Positions 60,833 through 63,972 of a DNA stretch of 64,000 nucleotides are shown here, piece after piece. The stretch's first letter is position 1. Each line of letters begins with the position of its first letter. The stretch is from Escherichia coli (GTDB taxonomy: Bacteria > Pseudomonadota > Gammaproteobacteria > Enterobacterales > Enterobacteriaceae), in the NCBI RefSeq assembly GCF_024502345.1, contig NZ_JALDNN010000001.1, one strand, 5' to 3'. The notes beneath the pieces are model-generated. The model made no database searches and was not told the origin of the DNA. It worked only from the letters and a program-made list of their open reading frames with translations. Both the position numbers and the translations under genes were made by a program.

Positions 60833-61889
60833 GGCTTTGTTGAATAAATCGAACTTTTGCTGAGTTGAAGGATCAGATCACGTATCTTCCCGACAACGCA
60901 GACCGTTCCGTGGCAAAGCAAAAGTTCAAAATCACCAACTGGCCCACCTACAATAAAGCCCTCATCAACCGTGGCTCCATAACTTTCTGGCTGGATGATG
61001 AAGCTATTCAGGCCTGGTATGAGTCAGCAACACCTTCTTCACGAGGCAGACCTCAGCGCTATTCTGACCTTGCCATCACGACTGTGCTGGTCATTAAACG
61101 CGTATTCAGGCTGACCCTGCGCGCTGCGCAGGGCTTTATTGATTCCATTTTTTCTCTGATGAACGTTCCGCTACGCTGCCCGGATTACAGCTGTGTCAGC
61201 AGGCGGGCAAAGTCGGTTAATGTCAGTTTCAAAACGCCCACCCGGGGTGAAATCGCACACCTGGTAATTGATTCCACCGGGCTGAAGGTCTTCGGTGAAG
61301 GCGAGTGGAAAGTCAAAAAGCATGGCCAGGAACGCCGCCGTATCTGGCGTAAGCTGCATCTCGCCGTTGACAGTAAAACACATGAAATCATCTGCGCTGA
61401 CCTGTCGCTGAACAACGTTACGGACTCAGAGGCCTTCCCCGGGTTAATCCGGCAAACCCACCGGAAAATCAGGTCAGCCGCCGCCGATGGCGCTTACGAT
61501 ACCCGGCTATGTCACGATGAACTGCGGCGTAAGAAAATCAGCGCGCTTATCCCTCCCCGAAAAGGTGCGGGTTACTGGCCCGGTGAATATGCAGACCGTA
61601 ACCGTGCAGTGGCTAATCAGCGAATGACCGGGAGTAATGCGCGGTGGAAATGGACAACAGATTACAACCGTCGCTCGATAGCGGAAACGGCGATGTACCG
61701 GGTAAAACAGCTGTTCGGGGGTTCACTGACACTGCGTGACTACGATGGTCAGGTTGCAGAGGCTATGGCCCTGGTACGAGCGCTGAACAAAATGACGAAA
61801 GCAGGTATGCCTGAAAGCGTGCGTATTGCCTGAAAACACAACCCGCTACGGGGGAGACTTACCCGAAATCTGATTTATTCAACAAAGCC
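60833..61889 (+). mobile_element. Second IS903-type element, 1057 bp, same orientation as the copy at 8186..9242 and apparently identical; no target-site duplication (flanks gccccagat / tcgctgaaa)
   Basis: Same 18-bp terminal inverted repeats at 60833-60850 and 61872-61889; left flank is ompT, right flank is the interior of an IS3-family element. Confidence 0.88.
60910..61833 (+). CDS. IS903 transposase (copy 2), 307 aa from GTG (ORF track 60865..61833)
   Basis: Translation identical to the transposase at 8263..9186. Confidence 0.85.
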
Positions 61890-62080
61890 TCGCTGAAAGT
61901 GGAATGTATCCATGGAGAACACTTTATCAGCCGGGAAATAATGCGGGCAACGGTGTTTAATTATATCGAATGTGATTACAATCGGTGGCGGCGGCACAGT
62001 TGGTGTGGCGGCCTCAGTCCGGAACAATTTGAAAACCAGAACCTCGCTTAGGCCTGTGTCCATATTACGTGGGTAGGATC
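61890..62080 (+). mobile_element. 3' remnant (about 190 bp) of an IS3-family element: last about 50 codons of the OrfB transposase (...[28 protein letters not shown]) plus right inverted repeat ending ...ggtaggatca
   Basis: Open frame from the IS903 junction to a TAG at 62047-62049, followed by an IS3-group-like terminal repeat ending CA. Confidence 0.6.
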
Positions 62081-62331
62081 ACACCTTCTTCCACACTTTC
62101 TGGAACATTTAGGTAACAACCATCTGGATATTGGTGTTGGAACTGGGTTTTACCTTACTCACGTACCTGAGAGTAGTCTGATATCTTTAATGGATTTGAA
62201 CGAAGCTAGCCTGAACGCGGCATCTACAAGGGCTGGGGAATCAAAAATTAAACATAAAATTAACCATTGATGTAGCCCCCTGAAACACCGGACAGTAGCT
62301 GTATCTCCAGATAAGAGATAGGCTTGAATAT

Positions 62332-62727
62332 ATGTCTAACACTAACGCCAATTTTGAGATGACCGGGATCCTGTTAGGGCAAGAAGTCCGTAAACGTAAA
62401 ACTCCTCAGGAGAAGATCGCCATTATCCAGCAGACGATGGAGCCGGGTATGAATGTCTCCCATGTCGCCCGCCTGCATGGTATCCAGCCCAGCCTGCTGT
62501 TTAAGTGGAAGAAGCAATATCAGGAAGGCAGCCTCACCGCCGTTGCGGCTGGAGAGGAAGTCGTTCCTGCTTCTGAGCTTACTGCTGCTCTGAAGCAGGT
62601 CCGGGAGCTTCAGCGCCTTCTGGGCAAGAAAACGATGGAAGTTGAGATCCTGAAAGAAGCCGTGGAGTACGGTCAGTCGCGAAAATGGATAGCGCACGCG
62701 CCCTTGTTGCCAAAGGACGGGGAATAG
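62332..62727 (+). CDS. IS2-group transposase OrfA (helix-turn-helix DNA-binding subunit), 131 aa
   Basis: ORF 62332..62727; clearly related to, but not identical with, IS2 InsC as I recall it (shared blocks [46 protein letters not shown]...LKEAVEYG). Confidence 0.8.
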
Positions 62728-63566
62728 CCATGGTCAGCCGGACCATGGGCGTGTCGCGTGCGCAACTGTCACTGCGGATTAACCGTTCTGCCGACTGGCA
62801 GGACAGGCGCTGTAACCGGCGTAATGAAGAAGCAGACGCAGAAATACTGTCGGCTATCCTCAACATTATCAGCGATATGCCGAGTTATGGTTATCGACGC
62901 GTGTGGGGCATCCTGCGCAAGCAACGTCGCACAGAGGGACAGCCACCTGTGAATGCCAAACGGCTTTACAGGATAATGAGCGAGCATAACCTGTTGTTGT
63001 TGCATCACAAACCAGAGCGACCGAAGCGTGAACATAAGGGCAAGATAGCGGTGGCAGAAAGCGATATGCGCTGGTGTTCAGATGGCTTCGAGTTCGGCTG
63101 CGACAACGGCGAAAAACTGCGGGTAACGTTCGCGCTGGACTGCTGCGACCGTGAGGCCATAGACTGGGCAGCAAGCACGGGAGGCTATGACAGTTCGACC
63201 GTGCAGGATGTGATGCTGAGGTCGGTGGAAAAGCGCTTCGGCGACAGGTTGCCCGACACAGCGGTGCAGTGGCTGACGGATAACGGTTCAGCGTATACCG
63301 CGTATGAAACGCGGAGGTTCGCGAGAGAGCTGAATCTGGAGCCCTGCACAACAGCGGTGAGCAGCCCGCAGAGTAATGGCATGGCCGAACGGTTCGTGAA
63401 AACGATGAAAGAAGACTATATCGCGTTCATGCCAAAACCGGATGTGAGAACAGCACTGCGAAACCTTGCAGTAGCGTTCACGCATTACAATGAAAACCAC
63501 CCGCACAGCGCGCTGGGATATCACTCCCCGAGGGAATACCGGCGGCAGCGGACATCGTTAACTTAA
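62685..63566 (+). CDS. IS2-group transposase OrfB (DDE integrase domain), 293 aa as an ORF; probably expressed as an OrfAB fusion by -1 frameshifting
   Basis: ORF 62685..63566 in the -1 frame relative to orfA with a 43-nt overlap; conserved [42 protein letters not shown] blocks. Confidence 0.8.
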
Positions 63567-63672
63567 GATACAAAAGCTGTTCGGAGATGGAGGGTCAAGA
63601 TCACATAAAATTAACCATGATGTTTTTGAACCTTATCCCGCGGCGTTACATGGTCAATTTGATTCCATTTCC

Positions 63673-63972
63673 ATGTTTTACCTTCTTCACTGCCTGCCTG
63701 GAAATATATCTACAAAAAGCTGTGTAATACGCAATGCGGCGCAGGCCTTAACTGACGATGGAACTCTATACGGAGCCACAATTCTTGGCGATGGAGTTGT
63801 GCACAATAGCTTCGGTCAAAAACTGATGCGCATTTACAATCAGAAAGGCATCTTTTCAAACACAAAAGATTCCGAAGAAGGCTTAACACATATACTCTCA
63901 GAGCATTTCGAGAATGTTAAAACCAAGGTTCAAGGTACTGTAGTAATGTTTTCCGCTTCAGGGAAAAAATAG
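63673..63972 (+). CDS. Hypothetical protein, 99 aa, no recognisable family
   Basis: ORF 63673..63972 just beyond the IS2-group element; identity unknown; could be a spurious ORF. Confidence 0.25.
   Translation: MFYLLHCLPGNISTKSCVIRNAAQALTDDGTLYGATILGDGVVHNSFGQKLMRIYNQKGIFSNTKDSEEGLTHILSEHFENVKTKVQGTVVMFSASGKK

Follow-up and report, generated by a model that had tools for sequence, protein, structure and literature searches.

The locus raises the question of why an insertion sequence of the IS3 family should be bordered by an exact direct repeat of 15 bp. Elements of this family usually duplicate 3-5 bp, and the length of the target-site duplication is treated as a fixed family signature in setting element boundaries, in IS classification and in automatic insertion calls. 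The window (the whole 64,000-nucleotide stretch of Escherichia coli DNA that was analysed, from contig NZ_JALDNN010000001.1) carries such an element within a methyltransferase gene. The initial annotation, which regarded the repeat abutting the element as anomalous for the family, offered three causes for it: insertion into a pre-existing repeat, partial duplication of an end of the element, or misplaced boundaries. The repeat was confirmed as exact at 62253-62267 and 63604-63618, and the anomaly is borne out, the 15 bp at this locus lying well outside the short duplication of 3-5 bp that is typical of the IS3 family, though not strictly defining. The features of the locus are as follows.

62081..62267, plus strand: 5' part of a methyltransferase gene (class I SAM-dependent), aligning with positions 601-792 of locus L014, which holds the intact gene WP_000239874.1
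62253..62267, no strand: left copy of the target-site duplication, CATAAAATTAACCAT, 15 bp, an exact repeat that is single-copy in the empty site
62268..63603, plus strand: complete insertion sequence of the IS3 family, IS2 group, 1,336 bp, TGATGTAGCC...CAAGATCA, with termini constant across sites
62268..62306, plus strand: left inverted repeat (IRL), about 39 bp, tip 5'-TG, from a gapped alignment with the reverse-complemented right end and with the IRL of IS2
62332..62727, plus strand: orfA, 131 aa, IS2 TnpA-like DNA-binding/regulatory protein (NCBIfam NF006928 'IS2 repressor TnpA', E = 5e-60, below the cut-off)
62685..63566, plus strand: orfB, 293 aa, DDE integrase-core part of the OrfAB transposase, overlapping orfA in the -1 frame
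63566..63603, plus strand: right inverted repeat (IRR), about 38 bp, tip CA-3', from the same alignment, with termini kept in all copies
63604..63618, no strand: right copy of the target-site duplication, CATAAAATTAACCAT, 15 bp, an exact repeat that is single-copy in the empty site
63604..63972, plus strand: 3' part of the methyltransferase gene, to the stop codon, aligning with L014 772-1169 at 100% (ORF 63673-63972)

The empty site was rebuilt by joining both flanks with one copy of the 15-mer (569 bp in all) and was searched against E. coli. At a coverage of at least 80% it matched 3,807 E. coli records, the best of them 100% identical, and more than 3,200 genomes carry the single-copy target at 100% identity over the 569 bp. 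The matches sit in the intact methyltransferase gene WP_000239874.1, in a prophage-like neighbourhood. A base-by-base check found the 15-mer once in the intact gene, where it encodes HKINH, and the insertion doubled exactly those 15 bp; the entire 15-mer is the duplication, with no short duplication generated elsewhere. No further copy of CATAAAATTAACCAT is present in the 64-kb window on either strand, and for two fixed junctions to share an exact 15-mer by chance has a probability of 4^-15, approximately 9e-10. A repeat search returns 16 nt (62252-62267 and 63603-63618), the base to the left of the 15-mer (A) being the same as the terminal A of the element, but the repeat is 15 rather than 16 nt because other copies place the extra A inside the element. 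The 15-bp repeat is therefore a genuine footprint of insertion, a target-site duplication made of target sequence.

The target gene is mildly repetitive at this point: a 12-bp near-tandem repeat (AAAATTAAACAT AAAATTAACCAT, encoding KIKH KINH) at 62244-62267 overlaps the 15-mer, and it belongs to the intact gene and was not produced by the insertion. This local repetitiveness is what could be said for the view that the target already held two 15-mers and that the element made an ordinary short duplication, but the intact gene contains the 15-mer exactly once, the rebuilt single-copy target agreeing at 100% with the more than 3,200 genomes counted above, and duplications of the same length recur at 23 other unrelated sites, so that the chance of this view being right is practically negligible. 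The insertion of the window was found in none of 5,426 complete E. coli genomes and is, on that account, particular to a single strain or lineage.

To the left of the target gene lies a patchwork of mobile DNA. An IS903-type element of the IS5 family (60833-61889, inverted repeats GGCTTTGTTGAATAAATC, transposase scoring 357 bits against NF033579) comes first and has no 9-bp duplication around it; next to it, 191 bp remain from the 3' part of an IS3 (61890-62080, ending ...GGTAGGATCA), a remnant that adjoins the methyltransferase gene, cutting it at approximately codon 44. Since the first 128 bp of the gene and the DNA upstream of it are missing from the window, the patchwork indicates a putative IS-mediated deletion or rearrangement.

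The element itself starts with TGATGTAGCC... at 62268 and stops with ...CAAGATCA at 63603 (first bases TGATGTAGCCCCC, last bases GGGTCAAGATCA in the window sequence), and the 15-mer adjoins both termini directly. Its ends are those of the IS3 family, imperfect inverted repeats of the form 5'-TG...CA-3', and the gapped alignment places a core, GCCCCCTGAA..CC(G/A)GACA, in both of its inverted repeats and in the IRL of IS2. Its coding region has the family layout of two overlapping frames in -1 register, and in RefSeq identical copies carry a joined CDS marked as having a programmed frameshift (WP_089617520.1, 'IS3 family transposase'). OrfB alone passes the model NF033516 'IS3 family transposase' (199 bits, cut-off 160). 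The best NCBIfam models are those of IS2, TnpA for orfA and NF006918 'IS2 transposase TnpB' for OrfB (E = 7e-125), each below its cut-off (201 < 229 and 416 < 597 bits, respectively). As the initial annotation had proposed, the transposase is related to that of IS2 and yet diverged enough for a distinct member, OrfB being 62% identical to that of an IS2 copy.

Placement in the IS2 group is supported by these sub-cut-off models and by the position of its clade among IS2-type lineages, but the element departs from the group in two respects: it does not make a 5-bp duplication, and it does not have the asymmetric tips of IS2 (a donor-inactive IRL beginning TA and an IRR ending CA), its IRL beginning TG. 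A Dam site (GATC) is located 1 nt from the right terminus (IRR tip ...AAGATCA, 63598-63603), with none at the left end. On Klebsiella IncFIB plasmids, a methylome study reports a consistently unmethylated GATC immediately 3' of an IS2-group tnpB (PMC7985491), and this may be the right-end GATC of the element, shielded by a bound protein.

Copies of the element elsewhere bear on the two remaining proposals. At least 17 E. coli records have full-length copies (nt 1-1336) that are 100% identical and lie at unrelated sites, and a copy 98.4-98.5% identical is found on approximately 1,500 Klebsiella plasmids. In the flanks of 13 identical copies the termini are invariant, the homology between copies ending exactly at TGATG... 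and ...GATCA, and the repeat sequence is different at each site, which disposes of misplaced boundaries. A related view holds that the 15-mer is part of the element, either as direct repeats at its termini or as a partly duplicated end, and that the real duplication is short; beyond the unusual length, nothing further favours it, and it is hardly credible given that copies identical over 1,336 bp carry wholly different 15-16-mers from site to site. The repeat consists of target sequence, not of element sequence.

Among the 13 identical copies, the duplication is 15 or 16 bp at nine independent sites, namely ydeE, the ydfJ-ydfI spacer, the genes of an integrase and of a phage terminase, a DUF262 gene and several genes on plasmids. 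The empty sites of ydeE and the ydfJ-ydfI spacer each matched more than 5,300 genomes with 100% identity, and single-copy empty sites were confirmed at four targets in total (the methyltransferase gene, ydeE, the ydfJ-ydfI spacer and ISEcp1).

Relatives were collected by an OrfB scan of one genome per species, which gave 80 loci. Elements with 90-95% nucleotide identity and repeats of 15 or 16 bp are present in Enterobacter asburiae, Yersinia artesiana, Pantoea stewartii and Candidatus Sodalis endolongispinus, the last of which has two further copies with slightly decayed long repeats; a Leclercia plasmid copy has a 16-bp duplication. ISEc48, a more distant relative, made duplications of 15 bp at four sites and 16 bp at two (six independent sites). 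The element of the window falls within this ISEc48-type clade, with a length of 1,336 bp, an OrfB at least about 77% identical to that of ISEc48, and duplications of 15-16 bp. When the window's element, its 90-98% relatives (Enterobacter, Yersinia, Pantoea, Leclercia, Klebsiella and Sodalis) and ISEc48 are taken together, 25 independent insertions with intact repeats comprise 15 duplications of 15 bp, nine of 16 bp and one of 5 bp, with none of 6-14 bp, so that 24 of the 25 are within 1 bp of one another.

The sole exception is a copy 100% identical to that of the window, inside ISEcp1 on the E. coli plasmid pCO_Eco4457-1, flanked by TCAGA. The target rebuilt with one TCAGA matches intact ISEcp1 in one piece on more than 3,000 plasmids, with all 295 bp aligned at 100%, so that the 5-bp duplication here is genuine and comes from the same element. 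Copies that have no repeat at all (approximately 25 of about 40 in Sodalis, as well as loci L003, L012, L015, L096 and L100) are expected from recombination between copies. The three causes first proposed having failed, 15-16 bp stands as the intrinsic, normal target-site duplication length of the element and its clade, an alternative that the initial annotation did not consider.

Two side observations concern copies within the clade. Candidatus Sodalis endolongispinus has approximately 40 copies of a relative of about 91% identity in one 2.7-Mb contig, many of them internally deleted, an IS bloom followed by recombination, as is characteristic of symbionts that have recently become restricted to a host. 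In a 409-bp derivative carried by K. pneumoniae pINF019_1 and nine other plasmids, an internal deletion has brought IS nt 1-271 next to 1196-1336; this derivative has both ends intact and a 15-bp repeat (AGGGCGGGGATAACG), and is possibly a non-autonomous, MITE-like form.

The long repeat was sought among IS2-type relatives from the same OrfB scan, whose OrfB proteins are 61-69% identical to that of the window and whose ends are TAGAYTGGCCCC... and ...GGGGCAAATCCA, in Klebsiella, Aeromonas, Enterobacter, Serratia, Lonsdalea and Symbiopectobacterium as well as, more distantly, Burkholderia and Pseudomonas. It was found at none of the 30 scorable loci, of which 16 have 5 bp, one has 4 bp and the others 0-2 bp. 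In a neighbour-joining tree (midpoint-rooted, without bootstrap support), the long-repeat clade, consisting of the window's element and its close relatives, a Rahnella element (L047, unscored for duplication on a contig without flanks) and ISEc48, is monophyletic and nested inside the 5-bp lineages, with the 5-bp elements of Burkholderia and Pseudomonas outermost. By parsimony, a 5-bp duplication would be ancestral and the 15-16-bp duplication would have arisen once. The OrfB proteins of the two types are colinear (293 versus 291-301 aa), and all 14 alignment columns that discriminate the clade are located at residues 10-116, ahead of the catalytic core, with none in the DDE core; two of the changes are indels, with 2 residues inserted at 49-50 and 1 residue deleted near 108.

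It is conceivable that the target, through bent or AT-rich DNA or similarity to the element ends, and not the transposase, dictates the length. The duplicated segments are slightly richer in A+T than their flanks (61% versus 57-59%), and the target at the window continues GATGT, resembling the tip of the IRL. The similarity that the initial annotation saw extending beyond the repeat (tgatgt / gatgtt) is of this kind, a match of the first bases of the IRL to the target after the duplication, and a shuffle test marks it as coincidence: GATGT-like motifs in several duplications had made likeness to the element ends a candidate, which was rejected across 18 sites (p = 0.37 for the IRL and 0.43 for the IRR). 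Apart from the slight AT-richness, no target consensus or symmetry was evident across 19 sites. Dictation by the target is thus very unlikely, there being no positional consensus and no excess similarity to the ends, and the IS2-type relatives in comparable genomes giving 5 bp and never a long repeat; the length tracks the lineage of the element.

There is a high probability that an intact IS2-group copy transposed into the prophage methyltransferase gene and left the 15-bp repeat as its normal duplication, by a mechanism along the following lines. According to the published model for circle-forming IS3-family elements (PMC3299598), the length of the direct repeat is the distance between the two catalytic centres. 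IS2 has a catalytic-centre distance of 5 bp, a circle-junction spacer of 1 bp, rarely of 2 bp, and functionally asymmetric ends; IS3, IS150 and IS911 have 2-4 bp for the junction spacer as well as for the direct repeat (PMC3299598). The element of the window would move by the copy-out-paste-in route of the IS3 family, through a circle whose ends are abutted 1 bp apart, and the circle-forming step would retain an IS2-like geometry. At insertion, the transposase joins the ends of the element to target phosphates that lie 15 or 16 bp apart on the two strands, or in rare cases 5 bp apart, and gap repair then duplicates the bases between.

In the insertion complex the attacking 3'-OH ends would be held one helical turn further apart than in IS2, judging solely by the lengths: 5 bp plus approximately 10.5 bp gives 15-16 bp and would leave the two scissile phosphates facing the same side of the double helix. 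Such a stagger, one turn longer, would account for the alternation of 15 and 16 bp, the missing intermediate lengths and the occasional 5-bp event. Its cause would probably be an altered geometry of the non-catalytic N-terminal part of OrfB, not an altered chemistry, this segment being one that would position or multimerise the catalytic domains.

A different account would uncouple the two joining reactions, so that the first end joins and the second-strand break or second-end joining follows at a loosely measured distance, possibly with host factors. The ends of IS2 are already functionally asymmetric, as noted above, and the length is not unique (15, 16 and once 5 bp). However, a loosely measured distance predicts a spread of lengths, which is not what the 25 insertions display, clustered as they are within 1 bp but for one exception of exactly the ancestral 5 bp, and uncoupled integration is therefore improbable, if less so than the other alternatives. 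The staggered joining by a reshaped transposase complex described above is preferred.

Abutted ends of the kind that a circle would contain were found in a metagenome contig (OJTV01001662.1; L103 1900-2152), in which the element's own ends are arranged as IRR-G-IRL (nt 313-1336, G, nt 1-171), the first 956 bp of the contig being unrelated low-GC DNA. This junction is consistent with a circle, and could also be a tandem dimer, an insertion beside an end or a chimeric assembly. The homologous 1-bp junction, like the 5-bp duplication, is a single observation; no homologous abutted-end junction was present in E. coli genomes, and plasmids gave only heterologous junctions or the deletion derivative. 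The equivalents of the -35 and -10 elements at the junction appear, by eye only, poorer in the window's element than in the Pjunc promoter of IS2.

The heterologous junctions, between IS2 and members of the long-repeat clade, occur in both directions in five records (L099 1640-1780; L100 1660-1800; L109, L110 and L111, each 1560-1700), always as IRR-(1-2 bp)-IRL, for example ...GGGGCAAATCCA-C-TGATGTAGCC and ...GGGTCAAGATCA-C-TAGACTGGCC. One such abutment is the copy on approximately 1,500 Klebsiella plasmids, and another is found in at least seven E. coli chromosomes. Their recurrence suggests that IS2 and the long-duplication clade recognise, or direct insertion to, each other's ends. In one record (L109 1607-1640), an ISEc48-like copy (95%) situated 1 bp from an IS2 right end has the left tip TAGAC, as in IS2, and not TGAGC, and may possess a hybrid end derived from recombination or end exchange.

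Of the known systems compared, ISEc48 resembles the element in length (1,336 bp), in OrfB and nucleotide sequence (77% and 78% identity, respectively), in its clade in the tree and in its 15- and 16-bp duplications, but ISEc48 has different terminal sequences (TGAGCTGGCC...GCAAGAACA) and is a distinct lineage. RefSeq uses the name ISEc48 in its annotation 'IS3-like element ISEc48 family transposase', and gives the window's element no label beyond 'IS3 family transposase'. IS2 is similar in size (1,331 versus 1,336 bp), in its orfA/orfB layout with a -1 frameshift, in its colinear OrfB, in the inverted-repeat core (GCCCCCTGAA..CCAGACA) and in being the source of the best NCBIfam models, and the 1-bp spacer at the one homologous junction, possibly that of a circle, would be as published for the IS2 minicircle (PMC3299598). 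It differs in its OrfB (62% identity, with the clade-specific substitutions and two small indels at residues 10-116), in its duplication (5 bp versus 15-16 bp) and in its tips, the IRL of IS2 beginning TA and IS2-type loci TAGA, unlike the TG...CA of the window's element. IS911, IS3 and IS150 share the family architecture and presumably the pathway via an abutted-end circle, but their spacer equals their repeat at 2-4 bp, whereas the window's element apparently has a spacer of 1 bp and a repeat of 15-16 bp, and it appears to have the largest mismatch of spacer and repeat among the IS3-family elements compared.

Three further IS2-group names, ISEc36, ISEae2 and ISEcl2, come from plasmids of Enterobacter, Klebsiella and E. 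coli that carry blaIMI, mcr-10 or qnrS1, and are likened to the window's element by milieu, not by sequence; the element and its 98% variant are abundant on plasmids of those hosts. ISEc36 is assigned to the IS2 group of the IS3 family (PMC12816380), and the pGA45 coordinates given for it (PMC4764695) fell in tra genes of the deposited record. In its qnrS1 plasmid context the element had no qnrS1 gene beside it, and identity with ISEcl2 is no more than a possibility. The papers on ISEc36, ISEcl2, ISEae2 and ISEc48 do not state the length of the direct repeat, and no duplication of 15-16 bp was found for any IS3-family element in the searchable literature, although ISfinder entries may record such a value.

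Taken jointly, the propositions that a single IS2-group lineage changed from 5 bp to 5 bp plus a helical turn, that it still occasionally uses the ancestral 5-bp register, that the determinants lie in the N-terminal third of OrfB, that the 1-bp junction spacing is unchanged and that all of this is undescribed in the primary literature are advanced tentatively, as a combination somewhat short of probable.

The element thus belongs to a known family and group, within which its subclade has acquired a target-site duplication roughly three times as long. Approximately 5% of complete E. coli genomes contain the element, and so do about 2,000 plasmids of enterobacteria, many with resistance genes; tools or curators that expect 3-5 bp will misplace the boundaries or miss the true duplication of this widespread element. 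A clade with a near-colinear transposase has tripled its duplication length in one discrete jump, contradicting the usual 3-5-bp rule of the IS3 family. If this is true, IS2 and ISEc48 or the window's element would constitute a natural, nearly isogenic pair for the study of how DDE transposases measure duplication length, and the contrast of 5 bp with 15-16 bp, the lone 5-bp event and the confinement of the discriminating changes to residues 10-116 would make the determinant of the stagger directly testable.
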